Of a stretch of 64,000 nt of DNA, positions 5,249 through 24,946 are shown one piece after another (position 1 is the stretch's first letter; every line of letters begins with the position of its first letter). Below the pieces are notes generated by a model. It saw only the letters and a program-made list of their open reading frames with translations, was not told the origin of the DNA and ran no database searches. The stretch comes from a virus: the IMG/VR virus record IMGVR_UViG_3300035670_000019, positions 1 to 64,000 of that record; one strand, 5' to 3'. Position numbers and translations under genes: made by a program.

Positions 5249-7669
5249 ATGAGTGGAGCAGCAGGTGGTATCACCATTAATAAAGAAAATTTAAAAGCAA
5301 CAATTCGAGATTACAGAGATAATGTTTTAAAACCATTAGGTCTTGATAAATCTTATAATGTTACTGGGGTTCGTTCTAGACCTGAAAAAAATACCTTTGG
5401 AGACATTGACATAATTATATCCTTCCCAGGAGGTGATAAAAAAGAACTTAAACAGCAATTAGCCCAATTCCTAGAACAAGTAGAAAAAATCCCAGAAATC
5501 CCTCATAAGAAAAATAAAAAATATTTCATACATGGTTCTATAGTCTCTATTTTATACCCAATATCTGGAAGAGAAAATGAGTATGTTCAAATAGATAATG
5601 TTGTTACGTCTTCTGAAGATGAAGGTAAATTTACTTACAGAATGTTAGATTTACCTGCTCAAGAACAAGGTTTAGCTTTAGGTTTAGCTAAAACTATATT
5701 TACAGAATTAGATGAAAAACAAATAGAACAATTATTTAGAAACCTAAACATCCCTCAAGATATTGAAAAACCAGGTGAAGGAGAAGAATATGATTTTAAC
5801 CTGAACACTTCAGAATTATCTTTAAGGATTGTTCCTATAGGTAAAAATGACGGAAGAGAAATATGGAAATCTAATAAATTTTCTGATATTAAAACCTTAC
5901 TTGCTTCTTTAGGTATTGATATTGAAAAAGATAAATTTGAAGCTATAGTTGAAAAAATTAAAAAATTCAAAAGTAGAAGATCAATAGATAGACTTAAAGG
6001 AATGTTTGCTAGAAATATTCGAGTTGGTGATACTGAAATTACAAGAGAAAAAGGTATTAAAAAACAACAATCACTAGATGCTGTAGCCGCTTTAGAAGGT
6101 AAATATAGTCCTTTAGTAATGAGTTTAATTAAACCATTTATAGAGGGAGAAACTATTATTGTAGAAGATGAAAATCAATCTAAAAAAGTAATAGCAGTAT
6201 TCCCAGGCAAATTTAAACCACCTCATAAAGATCATATAGCTCGAATTAAAGCCGCAGCTAATGATGCTGATGAAGTACTTGTCTTAGTGTCTCCAAAAAC
6301 AGAACCAAGTGGTACTGATAAGAAAAGTAGAGAAAAACTTGAAACCCAAATTCCTATATCAGCAGATCAAAGTTTAAGTATTTTTAAATCACTTAATCTT
6401 CCAAAAAATGTTAAAGTATTATTATCAAATGACTCATCTTTACCTGTACCTTCACCAAGTCCTGTAGCTGCAGCTTATGAATTATTTAAAAACAATCCTG
6501 AACAACAATATATAGGGGTATTTGGAAAAGAAGAAGATTTTGCTAGATTTGGATCCACTCCTTCAAATGTAATTATTAAAAATTATGATGGGTCAGCTGG
6601 AAATTTAAGTGCTACTGACTTAAGAGCAGCTTTGAAAAATAACCAGGATATAATTTCTTTCCTACCAGACGGGATTACTTCAGATGAATATAGACAAGTA
6701 TTAGGCTTAGATAATATTGATGAAGGTGATGAAATAACATCATTTTTAGATGAATATATAAATAATAAAGATTTAGAAGATATTGATCAAATAGCTGATG
6801 AAGAATTAGATACAGATGTTGTTTTTAATAAAGGAACAGACAATCACTTTGTTAAAAGAGCTAATGAACGTGGAGTTAGTAAACAAGATTTAATAGATTT
6901 TTTTCAAGAATTAGGAGCAGCAAAAGATGAATTCAAAGATGAATTTGAAGATCTAATTAACAACTATGAACCTGGGGAACCAAAACCTGCTATAGTTGCT
7001 AAAGATGAATATACTGGATTTAGTATACCATTTGTATCTGATAATATACGTAAAATATTAGCTACAACTATACTTTCTCCTGGGATGAAACCTAAAGAGA
7101 AAAAAACATTTAGTTTTTCTGAATCAGAAAATTTTGAACCATTACCAGATATAGACTTAAACACCTCTTCAGAATCATCTAGGGTTGATTATTATAAAGA
7201 TCATATTCAAAATGTAGTACCATCTGATTTTAAAGTTGATAAACATAAAGATAAGATTGTAGTATCTAATATCACTAAAAAAGGATTAGAACATAATAAA
7301 GAATTTAAAGACAAATTAATATCTTTAACAATGTTTATGATGGATAATGGTTTAAATATTGAGCCATTACCTGATATTAATTTTATTGAAGATGATAAAG
7401 AAAATGCTGTTGATATATTAGGACGTACAGCTCATTATGACCCAAACCAAAAATGTATTACTTTATACACTTATGGTCGTCATCCAAAAGATGTATTACG
7501 TTCATATGCTCATGAGATGATTCATCATCTACAAAACCTTGAAGGTAGAATCCAAGGTATTAAAGGTCAAAATGTTAATGAAGATGATTATTTAAAAGAA
7601 TTAGAAATTGAAGCTTACAGAGATGGAAATATTTATCTCCGTAGATGGGAAAATTCAACTAAAAAATAA
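5249..7669 (+). CDS. Multidomain polyvalent protein: nucleotidyltransferase + HxxH cytidylyltransferase-like + possible RNase-like + HExxH metallopeptidase
   Basis: TGVRSRPEKNTFGDIDII/VQID; FPGKFKPPHKDH...LSATDLRAAL; NHFVKRANERG; LRSYAHEMIHHLQ...EIEAY. Confidence 0.7.
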   Translation: MSGAAGGITINKENLKATIRDYRDNVLKPLGLDKSYNVTGVRSRPEKNTFGDIDIIISFPGGDKKELKQQLAQFLEQVEKIPEIPHKKNKKYFIHGSIVSILYPISGRENEYVQIDNVVTSSEDEGKFTYRMLDLPAQEQGLALGLAKTIFTELDEKQIEQLFRNLNIPQDIEKPGEGEEYDFNLNTSELSLRIVPIGKNDGREIWKSNKFSDIKTLLASLGIDIEKDKFEAIVEKIKKFKSRRSIDRLKGMFARNIRVGDTEITREKGIKKQQSLDAVAALEGKYSPLVMSLIKPFIEGETIIVEDENQSKKVIAVFPGKFKPPHKDHIARIKAAANDADEVLVLVSPKTEPSGTDKKSREKLETQIPISADQSLSIFKSLNLPKNVKVLLSNDSSLPVPSPSPVAAAYELFKNNPEQQYIGVFGKEEDFARFGSTPSNVIIKNYDGSAGNLSATDLRAALKNNQDIISFLPDGITSDEYRQVLGLDNIDEGDEITSFLDEYINNKDLEDIDQIADEELDTDVVFNKGTDNHFVKRANERGVSKQDLIDFFQELGAAKDEFKDEFEDLINNYEPGEPKPAIVAKDEYTGFSIPFVSDNIRKILATTILSPGMKPKEKKTFSFSESENFEPLPDIDLNTSSESSRVDYYKDHIQNVVPSDFKVDKHKDKIVVSNITKKGLEHNKEFKDKLISLTMFMMDNGLNIEPLPDINFIEDDKENAVDILGRTAHYDPNQKCITLYTYGRHPKDVLRSYAHEMIHHLQNLEGRIQGIKGQNVNEDDYLKELEIEAYRDGNIYLRRWENSTKK

Positions 7670-14355: not shown

Positions 14356-16925
14356 TGGAGAATATATATAAGTTTATAATACATGTTGTTTATAATCTGT
14401 TTCCCCTTAACGAATATTCTGAAGGTGAACTTAGAAATTTAATGCAGCAGTTTAAAGATGAAGCTGATGATTTAAATATCACTATCACTGATGATAAATT
14501 AAAATTTTATATCAATCGTTTTGATGCGTTAAAAAATTCACCTAAAATCACTGAAAAAGATCTACGTAAATATTCTTTATCTCAATTAATAAAATTAGTT
14601 ACTTCCTTAGCAGGTGATGAACCAGCTGAATTAGATATCACACCTGATGTTGTTTATAATAATGATGATAACACTATTGTAATTTATAACGGTAGTAAAG
14701 AAGGTAATTGCATTAGATTTGGTAAAGGAGAAAACTGGTGTATAACTAGAGGTTATTATAGTAACTATAGATATAGTTCTGATAGAGGTTATCCAACATT
14801 TTATTTAGCTAGAAATACTAATCTACCAGATAATGATAAACTAAGTTTTGTGGCTATACAAGTTAGAGATGTACCTAATGATAGTATTAGATATGTTTAT
14901 ACTAATAGGATGAATAGTCCTAATGAATCTAAACCAATGTCTTATGAATCTTTATTATCTGAAGTTCCTTGGCTGCAAGATATTCCTAATCTTAAAAATA
15001 TATTAAGATATATCCCTTTAACTTCCGCTGAAAAAGAAACTCAAAAATACAGAGCTAAACCTATTCCTTTTCAAGAATGGACTAAATTTCCATTTGAAAC
15101 TAAAAAACAATATTTAGTTGTTAGAAAAAACGACTCACAAATATTCAGTGATATAACTAATAGTGTGTTTGTAGTTAAGTATTTACCTAAATATCCTCAA
15201 ATAGCTACTTTTGTATGTCTTAACAATGGTATTATTAGTAATGAGACTATGATGCAACATCTAGATTTATTTTCAAATCAAGATGCTAAATCTTTTATAG
15301 CTAATATCCCAGGCACTGTAGGTCTTAGAAGATTAACTGATGATGAAATTTCTTTTGTAGCTAAAAAACTTTTAACTAAGTATAAAAAATGGGATACACT
15401 TCCTTCTAATCAAAGGATGTATGTGACTAAAGATGACAAGGCTATTGTTATGATAACACTCATAAAGCCTATTAAAATTGATGTTTATACTGAAGATGAT
15501 AGTTATACTAACATTAAACTTAACAAACGTACTTCTAGATTTTTATTAGATTTCCCTGAAATTGATACTATACCTTTTACTTCATTGATGGATTTAGTCG
15601 CAACTGAAGTTATAGATAGATCAACCCTAGACAGAATTCTAGCTAAAGCTAAAGAAAACCCAGATTCTGCCCTCATAATTAAAGATACAGAAGATGGACA
15701 GATTTTAGTAGATTCTAATACTTTTAGCTCTTATAAAATAGAAGATGATAAAGTAACTAGTATACCTATTGATAGTGAGGAAGTACAATCTATTCTTATT
15801 GATGAAGAAGGTAATAATGGACTTCAAAATAATGCTTTAAAATTATTAGGAAAAGATATTGATTCTGATTTAATAAATAAAGATATTTTCTTTAATATTA
15901 TTAATTCCACACCAATTGATAAAAGAAAAACATCTAATGGAAATCCTGTTATAGTAGTTAATGATGAAAATACTAAAAAAATCATTATAACTTACAGTGA
16001 TGATATAACAGCACTTTACACACCAGAATATGATTTTAATAGATTTAATTGGTATAACGTAAGAAATTATTCTCTTAGTGGAGCATCTCTTAGAGCGTAT
16101 TTTGAGTATCTTAGACAAACAAATCAAAGTTACACATCTGAACAGTTATTTAATATGGTAACTAGAAGTTATAGTGGTAATGCTAAAAAAGATGTTTTAT
16201 CTGCTAACCCACCATTATCAGATGATAACAAATATAAAATAGTTGTTAATGGTGATCTTTATTACTTATTAAATAAAGAAAATTCAAGATCAAGCCTTAC
16301 TATTTCACCTAACACAGGTAAATTAGTTAAAGCTAATATTTCCCCTCGTGATGCTGCTCAATATCTTGGCCAACCAGTCCCTGCTGGTGAAGAACCTCGT
16401 AGAAGAGGAAGAAGACCAGCTGGAGCAGAAACTCCCCAACAAGCCGCTGCTCCTGCCGCTGCTCAAGGAGCAGCTAATGGAGAAATAGCCGCTATAATAA
16501 ATCAATATGGTTTAACAAACGGATTTAACTCTTTACCTTCAGGTGTAAGAAATAGATTTTTAACTGGCGCTCTAACACCTACTTCTAGTGATAGAGGAGC
16601 TACTCGTAGAAATGGTGCTTTAGGTAATAGAGGTAGAGTTATAAGTGTTATAGCATCAGGACAAAGTAGATTCTATATTGTTCGTTTAGCAAGTAATACT
16701 ATAATAGGATCAGTTGCTACTCAACCAGATGCTCAACATTTTATAGTCACAGCTGAATCTGCATTTAGAATACCTAATGCTGGTGCGTTTGTAGATCAAT
16801 TGCGAGCTCGTAATTTAAGTGAAAATGCTAAAGCAATAATTTCATTACACGCTGAAGCAAAACCACAAGATATGAAAGAACTTAAATATTTATTAAAAAA
16901 TAAAAAGAAATATGAAACTTACTGA
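14355..16925 (+). CDS. Large hypothetical protein, possible head cargo
   Basis: 856 aa; LNE| near the N-terminus; FGKGENWCIT motif; basic C-terminal domain; late promoter at 14281. Confidence 0.55.
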   Translation: MENIYKFIIHVVYNLFPLNEYSEGELRNLMQQFKDEADDLNITITDDKLKFYINRFDALKNSPKITEKDLRKYSLSQLIKLVTSLAGDEPAELDITPDVVYNNDDNTIVIYNGSKEGNCIRFGKGENWCITRGYYSNYRYSSDRGYPTFYLARNTNLPDNDKLSFVAIQVRDVPNDSIRYVYTNRMNSPNESKPMSYESLLSEVPWLQDIPNLKNILRYIPLTSAEKETQKYRAKPIPFQEWTKFPFETKKQYLVVRKNDSQIFSDITNSVFVVKYLPKYPQIATFVCLNNGIISNETMMQHLDLFSNQDAKSFIANIPGTVGLRRLTDDEISFVAKKLLTKYKKWDTLPSNQRMYVTKDDKAIVMITLIKPIKIDVYTEDDSYTNIKLNKRTSRFLLDFPEIDTIPFTSLMDLVATEVIDRSTLDRILAKAKENPDSALIIKDTEDGQILVDSNTFSSYKIEDDKVTSIPIDSEEVQSILIDEEGNNGLQNNALKLLGKDIDSDLINKDIFFNIINSTPIDKRKTSNGNPVIVVNDENTKKIIITYSDDITALYTPEYDFNRFNWYNVRNYSLSGASLRAYFEYLRQTNQSYTSEQLFNMVTRSYSGNAKKDVLSANPPLSDDNKYKIVVNGDLYYLLNKENSRSSLTISPNTGKLVKANISPRDAAQYLGQPVPAGEEPRRRGRRPAGAETPQQAAAPAAAQGAANGEIAAIINQYGLTNGFNSLPSGVRNRFLTGALTPTSSDRGATRRNGALGNRGRVISVIASGQSRFYIVRLASNTIIGSVATQPDAQHFIVTAESAFRIPNAGAFVDQLRARNLSENAKAIISLHAEAKPQDMKELKYLLKNKKKYETY

Positions 16926-17151
16926 ACTTAAAAAAATAATTCAAGAAGAAATTACTAAAATTCTTTCTGAAGCCCCCCAAACTGCCCCATCTAAACCAGC
17001 CCCAGATGTTGAAATAGCTGAGCCTGGTACTGAAACAGCCCCTAAAACAAAACCTCGTAGAACAATTTCCCCTGAAGAACCTGTAGAAGAACCAGCTAGA
17101 GCTAAAAAGATAGCTGAAAAAATTGCTGCTCGTTTTAAAAAAGGAAAATAA
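16912..17151 (+). CDS. Small tagged internal head protein
   Basis: MKLTELKKIIQEEITKILSE tag, Pro-rich linker; late promoter at 16886. Confidence 0.55.
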   Translation: MKLTELKKIIQEEITKILSEAPQTAPSKPAPDVEIAEPGTETAPKTKPRRTISPEEPVEEPARAKKIAEKIAARFKKGK

Positions 17152-20195: not shown

Positions 20196-20270
20196 GACCG
20201 ATTCATAGCCGGTCGCTTTAACTAAAAACTAAAATGGAGCTGTGGCCCAATCATTTGATTGGGCCTTCTC
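20196..20270 (+). ncRNA. Candidate structured RNA element (hairpin + pseudoknot + second hairpin)
   Basis: GACCG/CGGTC stem whose loop CATAGC is complementary to GCTGTG (20239-20244); GGCCCAATCA/TGATTGGGCC stem. GC-rich island in an AT-rich spacer. Confidence 0.35.
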
Positions 20271-20279
20271 TATGCTTAT

Positions 20280-20311
20280 TTTGGCCTTAATAAAAAGAAT
20301 TATTATATTAA
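20280..20311 (+). promoter_or_regulatory. Bacteroidota sigmaA-type promoter
   Basis: TTTG-N20-TATATTAA. Confidence 0.55.
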
Positions 20312-20315
20312 AAAT

Positions 20316-20789
20316 ATGAATATATTTTATATTAATTCTGATCCTATTATCGCCGCTAGAGAATTAGCTGATGATCATATTCGTAAAATGCAAATTGAAT
20401 CTGCTCAAATGTGTTGTACAGCACATTGGGAAACAGGTGGTACTGCTCCATATAAACGAGCTCATAAAAACCATCCTTCAACAATTTGGACAAGACAATC
20501 AATACAACATTATAGATGGTTAGTAAAACATGGATTAGAAATTTGTAATGAATTTGAAAAACGTTATGGTAAAACACATGCTACTAAACAAGTATTGTTA
20601 TGGTGTAAAGACAATGAACCAAATTTACCTAATAATGGATTTATAGATCCACCACAATGTATGCCTGATGAATTTAGAAAGGAAAACACTATAGAAGCAT
20701 ATAAGAATTTTTATATTAATGATAAAATAAAAGTTAAAAAATTAGATTGGAAAAAATTAAATAATAAACCTGAATGGATAAACAAATAG
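20316..20789 (+). CDS. Pyrimidine-dimer DNA glycosylase (DenV-like) family protein
   Basis: MNIFY...DP..AA....D.H..KM.IESAQM; YKRAHKNHPSTIW; EFEKRYGKTH; PPQCMPDE. Start corrected to 20316. Confidence 0.75.
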   Translation: MNIFYINSDPIIAARELADDHIRKMQIESAQMCCTAHWETGGTAPYKRAHKNHPSTIWTRQSIQHYRWLVKHGLEICNEFEKRYGKTHATKQVLLWCKDNEPNLPNNGFIDPPQCMPDEFRKENTIEAYKNFYINDKIKVKKLDWKKLNNKPEWINK

Positions 20790-22069
20790 TAATAGTTGGT
20801 GCAGGAGTAGCTGGTATAAACGCAGCTACTAAATTAGTTGATAATGGTTACCCTGGTAACTTAATCACTATTATAGACAAAGGTAATGATCCACATAACC
20901 GCTTACCTGAAGAAGTAATGACAGGTATGTTAGGCGCGGGAGGATGGAGTGATGGTAAATTAACATACCATACTGCAATTGGAGGTGTATTATCAAAATA
21001 CTGTGGTGAAGAGAAAGCAATGGAATTGATGGATCAAGTTATTAATAACTTTAGACGTTTTCACCCTAAACCAGAAGAAATCTTTTGCTCTGATCCACAA
21101 GCAGAACCTGAATTCATTAAACCATACTTTGGATTACGTTTATTCCCAGTATGGCATATTGGTTCAAATTACCTACATGAGATTGCTAAAACATGGTATC
21201 AGTATTTGCTAAACAAAGGTGTTAGATTTGAATGGAATACTGAGGTTAAAAATATATACTTTGATCGTAGTAGAATCTACACATCCAATGCCTATATGCA
21301 TTATGATGAACTTATATTTGCAGTAGGCAAATCAGGTATTGACTTTGCTCAAAAATTATCAGATGAGTATAAATTACCAACTGAACCAAAATCAGTACAA
21401 ATTGGAGTACGTTTTGAAGCACCACAAAAATACTTCCAAAAATTAATTGATATTAGCTATGATTTTAAACTATATCAAAAGTTTGATAATGTATCATTAA
21501 GATCATTCTGTACTAATAATAACGCAGCTTACGTCGCAGTAGAGGAAACATATGGTGATATTACTTATAATGGTCACGCTAAGAAAGGTGAGGAATTTAG
21601 AAATGATATGACCAATTTTGGTATTTTGATGGAAATCAAAGGTATTGATAATCCATTTGAATGGTCAAGAGATGTAGTAAATAAATTGCAAATTGATGGA
21701 AAAGGATTATATTACTCACCTAACCAAACCCGCAAACCAGGATTAACATCTGAGGGTGCTACAGTATCAGCTCATCAAGTAGATGATTATTCATTAGATG
21801 ATATTAGAAATGCAATGAGTGGTTATTTCTCATATATTGAAACATTTATTGAACAAATGAATGAAGTATTTCAATTTGGTGATGATTGGGGGATATATGT
21901 TCCTGAAGTAAAATATGTCTCCGCAGAGCCTCTTGTTAATTATAATAATCTAAGTCTCACAACATATAATAATATTTACTTTGCTGGAGACGCATTATCA
22001 GCTAGAGGTATAACAGTAGCAGGTAGTCAAGGTATTTACATTGCTGAAGGTATTTTAAAAAAAATGTAA
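20774..22069 (+). CDS. FAD-dependent oxidoreductase (COG2509-like)
   Basis: IVGAGVAG dinucleotide-binding motif, GAGGWSDGKL, IGVRFE, RSFCTN, YFAGDA..RGI. Confidence 0.85.
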   Translation: MDKQIVIVGAGVAGINAATKLVDNGYPGNLITIIDKGNDPHNRLPEEVMTGMLGAGGWSDGKLTYHTAIGGVLSKYCGEEKAMELMDQVINNFRRFHPKPEEIFCSDPQAEPEFIKPYFGLRLFPVWHIGSNYLHEIAKTWYQYLLNKGVRFEWNTEVKNIYFDRSRIYTSNAYMHYDELIFAVGKSGIDFAQKLSDEYKLPTEPKSVQIGVRFEAPQKYFQKLIDISYDFKLYQKFDNVSLRSFCTNNNAAYVAVEETYGDITYNGHAKKGEEFRNDMTNFGILMEIKGIDNPFEWSRDVVNKLQIDGKGLYYSPNQTRKPGLTSEGATVSAHQVDDYSLDDIRNAMSGYFSYIETFIEQMNEVFQFGDDWGIYVPEVKYVSAEPLVNYNNLSLTTYNNIYFAGDALSARGITVAGSQGIYIAEGILKKM

Positions 22070-23084
22070 GTATTTAATTTCTGGTGATATTTATAATTAT
22101 GAAATATTATGTATATCATTGGATTAGAAAAGATACTAATGAACCTTTTTATGTAGGAAAAGGAACAGGTAATAGAGCAGGTCATAAAAAATCAAATAAA
22201 GGGTGGAAAAATATTACTTCTAAAGTTGAATGCTTTTGGGAAATTATTAAGTATTTTGATGATGAACAAACCGCTTATCTGTATGAACATACTCTTATTG
22301 AAGAATATAAAAAATTGGGGTATAAGATAATTAATCAAACTGAATATTCTAAAGGAGGAGGTACTTGGGCATATACAGATGAAGTAAAACAACGTCAAAG
22401 TAAAAATAGAAAAGGTAAAGGTTTAGGGCCTCGAAGTGAAGAATGGAAGCAAAATATTAGTAAAGCAAACAAAGGTAGAAATATATTATGGGCTAATAAA
22501 ATAGGGGATGCCCTTAGAGGAAAACCTAAAAATTATTTAAGTCATCATAAACCAATACTACAATATGATCTTCAAAATAATCTACTTAATGAATACCAAT
22601 CAGCCCAAGAAGCAGGTAAACATCTAAATAAATCAGGCAATAGTATAGCGGACTGTGCCGCAGGTCGTCAAAAAACAGCTTACGGATTTATTTGGAAATA
22701 TAAAGAATAATTCATATATTTATACTAAAATATAACTATGAAAAAATCAGAATTACAACAAATTATTAAAGAAGAGATAAATAAATTTAGACTTAAACCT
22801 GGAGATCCGGGGTACACTGATAATGGTATAGCAAATAACTATGCATCTGATTTAACTAATCGTTTATTCTATCAAAAAAATTCCTCTCCTCTACAGTGCG
22901 TAACTAATTGGGGTAATGAATTAGAAAAAGATCCATTAATAGCTGGTAGACTTACTAAAAGTCAAATAGAAGATTTAAAAAAAGAAGCAATAGCTCTTGT
23001 AGGGATTACTAAAGGAACTAGTAGGTATAAACAAGTATTAAAAGATAAAATACTTAAAGTTTTAAAAGGTGAAAAAATAAGATA
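21947..23084 (+). mobile_element. Homing-endonuclease cassette supplying a replacement 3' end for the oxidoreductase gene
   Basis: The last 40 codons of the oxidoreductase recur in diverged form at 23085-23207; a GIY-YIG gene and one passenger gene lie between. The left boundary may be slightly further upstream. Confidence 0.7.
22099..22710 (+). CDS. GIY-YIG homing endonuclease with NUMOD3/NUMOD1-type DNA-binding repeats
   Basis: YYVY...PFYVGKG..NRA; E..LI...N; SEEWKQNISKANKG; KPILQYDLQNNLLNEYQSAQEA...KTAYGFIWKY. Start at 22099, after late promoter 22087. Confidence 0.85.
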   Translation: MKYYVYHWIRKDTNEPFYVGKGTGNRAGHKKSNKGWKNITSKVECFWEIIKYFDDEQTAYLYEHTLIEEYKKLGYKIINQTEYSKGGGTWAYTDEVKQRQSKNRKGKGLGPRSEEWKQNISKANKGRNILWANKIGDALRGKPKNYLSHHKPILQYDLQNNLLNEYQSAQEAGKHLNKSGNSIADCAAGRQKTAYGFIWKYKE

Positions 23085-23085
23085 A
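22738..23085 (+). CDS. Tagged head-cargo passenger gene within the endonuclease cassette
   Basis: MKKSELQQIIKEEINK tag; own late promoter at 22716. Confidence 0.55.
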   Translation: MKKSELQQIIKEEINKFRLKPGDPGYTDNGIANNYASDLTNRLFYQKNSSPLQCVTNWGNELEKDPLIAGRLTKSQIEDLKKEAIALVGITKGTSRYKQVLKDKILKVLKGEKIR

Positions 23086-23207
23086 ATTTGTCATTAAGTG
23101 AATTCCCAAATGTACACTTTGTAGGTGATGCTTTATCTGCTCGTGGTATTACAGTTAGTGGCGCTCAAGGAATATATGTTTCTGAATATTTATTGAAAAA
23201 TAAATAA
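23085..23207 (+). pseudogene. Displaced original 3' end of the FAD oxidoreductase gene
   Basis: Translates as NLSLSEFPNVHFVGDALSARGITVSGAQGIYVSEYLLKNK* versus the gene end NLSLTTYNNIYFAGDALSARGITVAGSQGIYIAEGILKKM*; no start codon. Confidence 0.85.
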
Positions 23208-23671
23208 TGAAATTATCACAACTAAAACAAATCATTAAAGAGGAAATACATAAAGTATTGAATGAAGCTTTTGTTAATGATAAAGGAGAACTTGAAGATT
23301 TTAATTTTGAAAATGATTTAGTAGTAAAATATTTACCTGAATATTATCAAAATGAAAAACGTTATAAATTTTTCTATTGTGAAAAAGGATTAGCAGATGA
23401 CTTTGATACTAAGGATGGTAAAAAAGTAAAATATATTGTAGGATATTCACATTTTTTAGATTTACCTAATGATAAAGAATGGATTTTAGATATGCCTGAC
23501 CCAAAAACTGAATTAAATATAGCTTCAGGTTTAGCACTTGACCCAGATAGTTGTTATGATGCAGAAATGGATGTGATAGGATATATATATTCTAAAAATG
23601 GAAAAGATATTGAAACAGAATATGAAGAAGAGGAATTATGGGAGGCTTTTTATGATTCATTAGGAGCTTAA
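23207..23671 (+). CDS. Tagged acidic head-cargo protein
   Basis: MKLSQLKQIIKEEIHKVLNE tag; late promoter at 23186. Confidence 0.55.
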   Translation: MKLSQLKQIIKEEIHKVLNEAFVNDKGELEDFNFENDLVVKYLPEYYQNEKRYKFFYCEKGLADDFDTKDGKKVKYIVGYSHFLDLPNDKEWILDMPDPKTELNIASGLALDPDSCYDAEMDVIGYIYSKNGKDIETEYEEEELWEAFYDSLGA

Positions 23672-23707
23672 AATTTGATAAGTTTATACATAACCTTTAA
23701 TGTTTAG

Positions 23708-23741
23708 GGCTTGGCTTTGCCAAGCCTTTTTGCTATATTCA
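23708..23741 (+). promoter_or_regulatory. Overlapping intrinsic terminator and sigmaA-type promoter
   Basis: GGCTTGGC-ttt-GCCAAGCC-TTTTT; CTTG-N20-TATATTCA. Confidence 0.6.
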
Positions 23742-23761
23742 CTATATAAATAAAAAACATA

Positions 23762-24946
23762 ATGAATATACACGAGGACTTATCAAAAATTGGCAAGCAG
23801 TTAATGCTTAGTGAACCATTCTATGGTGTATTCTTATCTACTCTTAATAAAGTAGTTAGAAAAGATGTACCAACAGCTGGTGTTTGTTTACAAGGTATTA
23901 ATTATCAATTAGCAGTTAATGAAGAGTTTTGGAACTCACTACCAGGAGATAAACCAAAAATAGGACTACTCAAACATGAGTTGCTCCATATTTGCTTTAA
24001 TCATCTTCTTGATAGAGATGACTACCCAGATCAAGAATTACATAATGTAGCAGCTGATATTGAAATCAATCAATATATAGCTGAGGAGTATTATCCATCT
24101 AAAGATCTTCTATTACCAAGTTCATATCCTGAACTGAATTTGCCTTTAAAAGCTGGTACTAAAGTATATTATGGTTTGTTAAAACAAGCTTTAGAAAGTG
24201 GAGCTAGTCCAAAACTACAACAATTAATGGATGGTTTAAAAGGTGAAGGTCTACATCCAACTTGGAGTGAGTTTGATGGTTTAAGTGAAGCTGATGCTAA
24301 ACTAGCCAAATCACAACTTGAACATCAAATTAAAGAAATACTTAAAAGTCAATCAGATAAGGGTAGAGGTTTTGTTCCATCTGAGTTAGAAAGTTTTATA
24401 GATGATATATTAGCTGAAAGTGAACCATCATATGATTGGAGATCGTATTTTAGAAAATTTGCAGGTACATCAACTCGAGTCTATACTAAAAAAACAAGAC
24501 GTAAACTAAACAAACGTTTCCAAGAAAATCCAGCCTTAAAAATTAAAACTAAAAAGAATATACTTGTAGGCATTGATACATCAGGTTCAGTTCTTAATGA
24601 AGATTTAGCTAGATTTTTTGCTGAGATACATCATATGTACAAAACTGGAGTAACAATCACTGTAGCTGAAGGTGACGCTGCTATTCATAATGTATGGGAA
24701 TATAAAGGCGAGATGCCTAATTCTGTTACAGGTAGAGGCGGTACAAACATGAATCCGTTTATCCATTATTTTAATGAACATAAAGAATATAATAGTTTAA
24801 TTATATTAACTGATGGATTCATAGGTGAAAATAAAATTAAATCATTCAAACCAACTTTAATGGTCATAACACCGAATGGTGAAAGTTTAGATGTAATTAA
24901 AGAAAACGGATGGGGCAACACTATTAAAATGAATTTGGCCTCCTAA
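23762..24946 (+). CDS. Metallopeptidase-vWA protein (DUF2201-like)
   Basis: LLKHELLH, NVAADIEINQ; vWA MIDAS IDTSGS, GRGGT, ILTDG. Confidence 0.85.
   Translation: MNIHEDLSKIGKQLMLSEPFYGVFLSTLNKVVRKDVPTAGVCLQGINYQLAVNEEFWNSLPGDKPKIGLLKHELLHICFNHLLDRDDYPDQELHNVAADIEINQYIAEEYYPSKDLLLPSSYPELNLPLKAGTKVYYGLLKQALESGASPKLQQLMDGLKGEGLHPTWSEFDGLSEADAKLAKSQLEHQIKEILKSQSDKGRGFVPSELESFIDDILAESEPSYDWRSYFRKFAGTSTRVYTKKTRRKLNKRFQENPALKIKTKKNILVGIDTSGSVLNEDLARFFAEIHHMYKTGVTITVAEGDAAIHNVWEYKGEMPNSVTGRGGTNMNPFIHYFNEHKEYNSLIILTDGFIGENKIKSFKPTLMVITPNGESLDVIKENGWGNTIKMNLAS

Follow-up and report, generated by a model that had tools for sequence, protein, structure and literature searches.

The first 64 kb of the virus record IMGVR_UViG_3300035670_000019, a complete record of 163 kb in IMG/VR, carry a gene for a flavin adenine dinucleotide (FAD)-dependent oxidoreductase that is a hybrid, its native body being joined to an imported 3′ end. 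Comparison with related phages shows, at the level of sequence, that the end now expressed was imported together with a homing endonuclease gene (HEG) that follows it, and that the end native to the gene lies displaced farther downstream as an orphan. We consider it likely that this arrangement arose through co-conversion of the gene end by the free-standing HEG, with one-sided repair leaving the orphan behind. In what follows, the window denotes the whole stretch analyzed (64,000 nucleotides, nt), the parts of the locus from the oxidoreductase to the hairpin behind gene X are on its plus strand, and L numbers denote relative loci or contigs, among them L103 (a metagenome contig), L186 (from JGI) and L187 (from Logan).

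The hybrid gene (20774–22069; 431 amino acids, aa) matches Pfam Pyr_redox_2 and other Rossmann-type families as well as phrog_12409 'dehydrogenase'. Its last 41 codons (21947–22069) are present again at 23085–23207 (BLASTP 25/38 identical and 34/38 positive, E 4e-19), which bears out the claim of an earlier note, made from the sequence alone, that the last 40 codons of the gene exist twice. Searching the entire 163-kb genome in six frames turned up 23085–23207 as the sole second copy (E 1.5e-11). As to bases, 42 of the 102 positions compared differ between the two copies (~59% identity), a divergence too great for the repeat finder to have listed the duplication. The expressed copy sits inside an imported, HEG-linked 3′ end of what we term the C1 type (21918–22069, about 50 codons), which has 82–98% nt identity to L005 versus 55–72% to L001 and is preceded by a left crossover interval (21899–21917) in which the sequence is identical in both haplotypes. 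The other copy is the orphan (23086–23207), the displaced native oxidoreductase 3′ end of about 40 codons plus stop. Its frame is open, and its TAA (23205–23207) overlaps, as TAATG, the ATG (23207–23209) of the following gene, here called gene X (23207–23671, 154 aa, function not assigned), just as the note had described. The note had further placed the expressed end, an endonuclease gene and a passenger gene in between, over about 1.14 kb, and this too holds: 1136 bp with the endonuclease gene (22099–22710) and the passenger gene (22738–23085) lie between the copies. The arrangement is real and no assembly artifact, since its junctions are reproduced in two further assemblies, being crossed by L186 (99.98% identity over 4184 nt) and by L187 (100% over 2970 nt).

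In a sliding comparison, the oxidoreductase body is 95–100% identical in nt to the HEG-free L001 up to ~21900 and 55–70% identical thereafter, and the stretch from 21845 to 22717, the whole HEG included, is 93% identical to the HEG-carrying L005. Informative sites are of the L001/L002 type before and of the L005/L098 type after 21899–21917 (alignment A1), and the imported tract begins 30–50 nt upstream of the duplicated part. The orphan, in turn, has 95.4% nt identity with the gene end of L003/L004 and 92% with its L001 counterpart. Five of 102 bases differ from L003, three of them synonymously; this divergence is about that of the gene body, and the orphan has thus not decayed. Against L002, the closest syntenic relative (91.6% over 4.8 kb downstream), the window shows a single-point insertion pattern, with 20774–21949 equivalent to L002 2247–3422 and 23086–23187 to L002 3421–3522. 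The ends of HEG-free relatives are 89–92% identical in aa to the orphan versus 61–63% to the expressed end, and the orphan with gene X matches, as a single block, the oxidoreductase 3′ end with gene X of L086/L087 (75% nt, 23086–23679), in which the two are contiguous. Both results agree with the note, which had read the orphan as the ancestral end and had expected relatives lacking the insertion to match it and to run directly into the next gene.

More than 597 IMG/VR loci hold a relative of the oxidoreductase, which made comparative tests feasible; the best 80 of these, 77–92% identical, were compared, and the comparison of end type with HEG presence covers 73 distinct oxidoreductase alleles, 62 of them HEG-free. 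Among these alleles the C1-type end is found only where the HEG follows, namely in L005, L012, L057, L098, L088 and the window, the first five having ends 84–93% identical in aa to that of the window. All HEG-free alleles (62/62) have the orphan-like end type, and the duplication, which the note had tied to the endonuclease, occurs in none of them (0/62). Identities of body and end are discordant in the aa comparison: the HEG-free L001–L003 are 89–95% identical to the window in the body and 61–63% in the end, and HEG-carrying loci are 65–82% identical in the body and 74–93% in the end. Occupied and empty loci can be paired as well. L005 and L001 have syntenic flanks (86–88% nt) and differ in the HEG and the end type, and both this pair and that of the window and L002 exhibit presence/absence polymorphism at one site. 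Where C1 alleles differ in a codon, the change is mostly synonymous (212 synonymous versus 76 not), which marks the imported end as a working coding sequence.

The same location is occupied by the closest members of the endonuclease family. Among the best 80 IMG/VR loci for a HEG profile, 18 of the 18 with at least 35% identity to the window enzyme lie directly downstream of an oxidoreductase gene, and this adjacency holds even where the oxidoreductase is only 44–54% identical. These downstream endonucleases share their last ~55 residues, a near-identical NUMOD1 module (alignment A2). Their heads differ, with at least three types of GIY-YIG N-domain and, in L155 (4116–4385) and L164 (6374–7321), an HNH head; shared tails with swapped heads fit one target region attacked by shuffled nucleases. 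At ~20 other occupied loci the HEG family lies between genes, with a linked 3′ end and without an orphan, from which it follows that the orphan is an occasional by-product and not the normal mode of insertion. In this respect our reading departs from that of the note, which had inferred an element inserted inside a coding region.

The HEG of the window (22099–22710, 203 aa) appears to consist of a GIY-YIG-like N-domain, a NUMOD3 linker and a C-terminal NUMOD1 DNA-binding module. In Pfam, NUMOD1 is found with 33.2 bits (cut-off 22.8) and NUMOD3 with 20.4 bits, at its cut-off. The protein also matches phrog_314 'homing endonuclease' and, with E 1.9e-7 and 31 bits, under the curated cut-off of 56, TIGR01453 'group I intron endonuclease'; it is 95% identical in aa to the HEG of L005. 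The N-domain shows a YVY...YVG motif, with Y6, Y18, G20 and N79 invariant in 8 homologues, and PF01541 GIY-YIG is matched by 4/8 HEG homologues (best E 3.8e-4). In an AlphaFold2 (AF2) model the N-domain (pLDDT ~80) is arranged as β-β-α-α-β-α and, with weak E-values, superimposes on the GIY-YIG domains of UvrC and I-TevI at TMt 0.55–0.60. The best fold matches of the HEG model, again with weak E-values, are I-HmuI, whose DNA-binding region is the top match, the GIY-YIG domains of PD-T4-3 and UvrC, and I-TevI. Foldseek with the whole two-domain model returned the expected families, none at E ≤ 0.001, and a PDB sequence-profile search with the HEG alignment gave marginal matches only. We therefore describe the HEG as GIY-YIG-like, with putative catalytic competence. 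Its open reading frame (ORF) is separate from the oxidoreductase, whose stop (22067–22069) is followed, 29 nt later, by the HEG ATG at 22099. A group I intron or intein was considered and ruled out: the stop precedes the HEG, the orphan repeats the gene end instead of continuing it, and Rfam with permissive filters gave no intron match over 21700–23400.

The passenger module (22714–23086) comprises a short upstream block and a 115-aa ORF (22738–23085) with no function assigned. It is 79% identical in nt to L103 537–906, starting 24 nt ahead of the ATG and ending with the stop, and in L103 the homologue stands alone between hairpins, without a HEG nearby. Homology of the window to HEG-carrying relatives stops at 22717, 7 nt past the HEG stop. 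Since the 3′ end with the HEG and the passenger have different relatives (L005 and L103, respectively), the 'cassette' amounts to two modules. Thus, of the intron-less intragenic insertion proposed in the note, in which one cassette leaves the gene whole, the absence of an intron and the complete replacement end stand, but not the unity of the cassette. The passenger protein belongs to no Pfam or PHROG family, and no relatives of it were found in IMG/VR; in a larger protein collection, homologues with 55–72% identity come from metagenomes. One homologue lies directly 3′ of another GIY-YIG gene, itself downstream of a dCTP deaminase gene, and none of the homologues has a HEG–passenger–oxidoreductase context usable as a donor. 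At the junction of the passenger module with the orphan, microhomology extends to at most 1–3 nt.

Passenger and gene X share a block of 60–70 nt that takes in the upstream region together with the first ~17 codons (MKxSxLxQIIKEEI) and that the repeat finder did list at the starts of both. In the window the block is found at 1644–1695, 16886–16952, 22714–22790 and 23186–23262, each time at the beginning of a small gene not otherwise related to the others, and numerous related loci have it at gene starts as well. Its role may be that of an N-terminal tag, or it may serve recombination as a substrate when gene modules are shuffled. Gene X itself is an insertion/deletion difference between the window (23188–23687) and L002 (3523–3543). 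In L002 the oxidoreductase is followed directly by a DUF2201/VWA gene and X is absent, and homologues of X (68%) also occur in L083–L085, without an oxidoreductase upstream.

Orphans are present at four loci, the window, L060, L088 and L164, and at least two other phages repeat the pattern of the window independently. In L060 the HEG has a different head and the same tail; body and orphan are nearest the HEG-free L034 (94.6% and 93.3%, respectively), and the expressed end is nearest the HEG-carrying L116. L088 has a third head type, an expressed end of the C1 type (89% aa) and an orphan nearest HEG-free alleles. The window, L088 and L060 have orphans whose left ends lie at different codons, within ~20 nt of each other, and which are preceded by unrelated passenger genes; these are therefore separate events converging on one place. 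In L164 an orphan oxidoreductase 3′ fragment (6230–6340) lies directly upstream of an HNH-NUMOD gene. This fragment is found ~850 nt downstream of a divergent full-length oxidoreductase, and L164 may be a mirror case, in which a HEG-linked end has turned orphan.

Cleavage, its position, the immunity of the imported end and the pathway of repair are what we infer from this arrangement. A Seg-like GIY-YIG/NUMOD HEG, residing just downstream of a conserved phage FAD-oxidoreductase gene, would probably make its cut in HEG-free alleles no more than ~130 nt before the end of this gene. The ensuing repair, templated by a co-infecting HEG-carrying genome, would copy the HEG and the adjacent 3′ end (co-conversion), and the imported end, heavily recoded in its bases, would presumably be immune to cutting. 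On the left, repair would have proceeded by homologous crossover at 21899–21917. On the right, homology would have been lacking because the donor had other genes downstream, and the imported end, the HEG and, then or later, the passenger would have been joined illegitimately at 23086. The native last ~40 codons would thus stay attached to gene X as an untranslated or incidentally translated orphan, and the oxidoreductase would stay whole because a complete replacement end was brought in. This end includes the conserved GD(A/S)LSARG stretch, which, by analogy, would correspond to the GD motif that binds FAD near the C-terminus of such flavoenzymes. In this hyperplastic region, the DNA that follows the oxidoreductase is as a rule unrelated.

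The position of the break can be narrowed by the crossovers and orphans taken together. The left crossover of L088 falls at anchor positions 14–20, and a break between the left crossovers and the orphan boundaries would lie in the P-E-P-L-V-x-Y codons, whose native equivalent is ~21925–21948. A candidate target of the HEG, suggested by allele comparison, is CCTGAACCATTA, which is intact in 65–79% of the 62 HEG-free versus 5–10% of 21 HEG-carrying alleles (the first 8 and 13 added later). A single diagnostic base at anchor position 20 (CCA to CCT) was also tried and was rejected, as it fits the first 8 HEG-carrying alleles and not all of the 13 added later, leaving regional enrichment only. The recoding of the imported end at the level of bases goes beyond what the protein needs: compared with the native end, Leu-Ser-Leu is kept though 7/9 bases differ, and Arg is encoded by CGT versus AGA. 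Putative immunity of the imported end to cleavage is a reasonable reading, with indirect support from the linkage of end haplotype and HEG and from the mostly synonymous recoding.

Several observations weigh against co-conversion with one-sided repair as set out here. In L098, whose HEG is 92% identical, some of the recoded cluster is missing, and native-like hexamers persist in L116 and L166; with these exceptions, no single immunity determinant is defined. The window HEG itself has no Pfam GIY-YIG match at E ≤ 1, and its activity is assumed from family resemblance and intact length. No donor with the HEG–passenger junction was found, and the passenger may have come together with the HEG or at another time. 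Finally, the allele-association counts, those for the candidate target among them, are not phylogenetically independent.

Among other explanations, the whole block including the orphan could, once formed, be a transmissible unit. It would home from both sides as a true insertion into the gene at codon ~392, with the gene body serving as left arm and the part of the 3′ end beyond the cut as right arm. The window does correspond to L002 plus a single-point insertion, four loci have orphans, and the orphan would be expected to match the recipient lineage here as well. We nonetheless regard this as unlikely: among the three best-studied orphans the first codon differs and the preceding passengers are unrelated, apart from copies of this phage no second genome was found with this passenger beside this HEG, an orphan is lacking at ~20 occupied loci, and the imported tract reaches upstream of the duplication. 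That the orphan is the remnant of a second, full oxidoreductase paralogue, mostly deleted since, would suit a gene that is a rearrangement hot spot, with split or partly duplicated versions in L087, L114 and L155. Body and orphan, however, share one lineage and meet to the base when placed on L002, and two full copies occur in 0 of more than 100 loci examined, so that we hold such an origin to be very unlikely. An in-place tandem duplication of the 3′ end, followed by divergence and later insertion of the HEG, has in its favor two copies in the same orientation and nothing more. Each copy is nearer to a sequence elsewhere (93% to L005, 95% to L003) than to its partner (~59%), and the expressed copy runs on into HEG DNA from one and the same donor lineage, which makes a tandem duplication extremely improbable.

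A further possibility is that the orphan is kept for a function, either as a 39-aa peptide or as a coupling or leader element for the expression of gene X. Its frame is open with a stop overlapping the ATG of X, a start codon is present, TTG in the window and ATG in L088, and a 39-aa ORF is annotated in L186 by one gene caller. The orphan of L060, on the other hand, has no start codon giving an ORF of at least 30 aa, and the 5/102 nt in which the window orphan differs from L003 are no more than a recent event would bring, so that an open frame needs no selection; we think a function improbable. Such a function would concern the retention of the orphan, not its origin, and is compatible with co-conversion and one-sided repair. 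As an extension of the latter, and only tentatively, the portable recoded 3′ end may be seen as an adaptation with which one homology arm suffices, the target gene is never killed and unrelated downstream regions become invadable. The orphans (at least four independent) would then be footprints of cleavage in the P-E-P-L-V codons just upstream, and the swapped GIY-YIG/HNH heads on NUMOD1 the trace of an arms race over one site.

The surroundings of the hybrid gene are as follows. Upstream, a pyrimidine-dimer DNA glycosylase-like gene (20259–20789; Pfam Pyr_excise, phrog_624) overlaps the oxidoreductase start by 16 nt, and it precedes the oxidoreductase in many relatives as a conserved pair. 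Downstream of gene X, a terminator-like hairpin (23706–23728; 10-bp stem with 6 GC pairs, then a T-run), a pattern match from a consensus scan only, may close the unit. A sigma-70 promoter scan gave 24 sites versus 23.9 expected in shuffled sequence and hence no promoter signal. Within the oxidoreductase gene, the stretch 21250–21310 is hypervariable, with 18–60% nt identity to most relatives and 93–96% to L001, and corresponds to the mid-gene site of a splitting HEG in other phages. In L087 (1756–3926) the gene is split near aa 172–175 into ORFs of 173 and 257 aa by a different GIY-YIG gene of 266 aa, and Rfam found no group I intron in this split gene; mid-gene splits also occur in L086, L114/L115 and L155, and in L155 residues 175–237 are apparently present in both gene pieces. 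A nucleotide search of GenBank phages with 20700–23800 gave a sole match of 69 nt, at chance level, and a protein search gave only ~25% identical dehydrogenases, from Campylobacter phages (myoviruses); by these searches the phage has no close cultured relative.

Taken as a whole, the locus offers a natural, population-level view of how free-standing HEGs reshape phage genes. One gene end appears to be targeted by many endonuclease variants, and the end linked to the endonuclease moves along with it between lineages that share only 65–82% identity in the gene body. Where downstream homology is missing, repair would leave a datable scar, and the orphans would predict the cleavage site of an uncharacterized enzyme. 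For annotation, a short unexplained ORF beside a HEG may be a gene end that was displaced, and phylogenies should avoid the 3′ ends of genes next to HEGs.

The architecture as such is known from fungal mitochondria; here it is recurrent in natural phage populations. The mitochondrial mORF hybrids comprise Allomyces macrogynus atp6, Glomus atp6, atp9, cox2 and nad3, Rhizopus atp9 and Mortierella cox2 (PMC3630166). In these the native remnant is 91–98% identical in nt to relatives and the inserted copy 64–81%, which was read as endonuclease-driven horizontal transfer (PMC3630166). In Endoconidiophora, atp6 and cob have C-terminal duplications beside GIY-YIG or LAGLIDADG ORFs (PMC6279837). As in the mORF hybrids, the window has a gene core, a foreign in-frame C-terminus, an endonuclease ORF and a native remnant nearer to relatives, and the contrast in divergence is alike, at 95% between orphan and relatives versus 59% between the copies. 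Unlike them, it belongs to a phage genome and not to an organelle and has an extra passenger gene inside; its HEG, in contrast to some of theirs, is a separate ORF, neither fused to nor in phase with the host gene. The present case also comes with population data, in which the orphan-free intergenic state is the usual one. We found no phage precedent for a HEG-associated duplicated gene end in the literature searched, which does not show that there is none.

Among phages, the nearest systems are SegF, SegG, SegB and MobE of T4, free-standing endonucleases that bring about intronless homing (reviewed in PMC2988022; PMC2330249). Like these, the HEG of the window is a GIY-YIG/NUMOD enzyme between genes, with presence/absence polymorphism and co-inheritance of neighboring gene sequence. 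In T4, however, both flanks recombine homologously and no duplicated end results, whereas here one junction would be illegitimate and cleavage is predicted. Splitting of Aeh1 phage nrdA by mobE into genes-in-pieces (Friedrich et al. 2007, cited in PMC2988022) is similar in that a HEG lies within a coding region without an intron, and L086/L087, L114 and L155 are split likewise; the window gene differs in being unsplit and complete, its end having been replaced. For a T4 intron, homing that is one-sided and illegitimate was demonstrated, with junctions at microhomologies (Parker et al. 1999, as summarized in PMC2988022), and has in common with our proposal the homology on one side only and the microhomology junction, proposed here for the right-hand junction. 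That system was a laboratory construct with an intron, whereas the window is natural and its HEG free-standing. Mitochondrial gene hybrids and laboratory one-sided T4 homing thus meet in wild phages.

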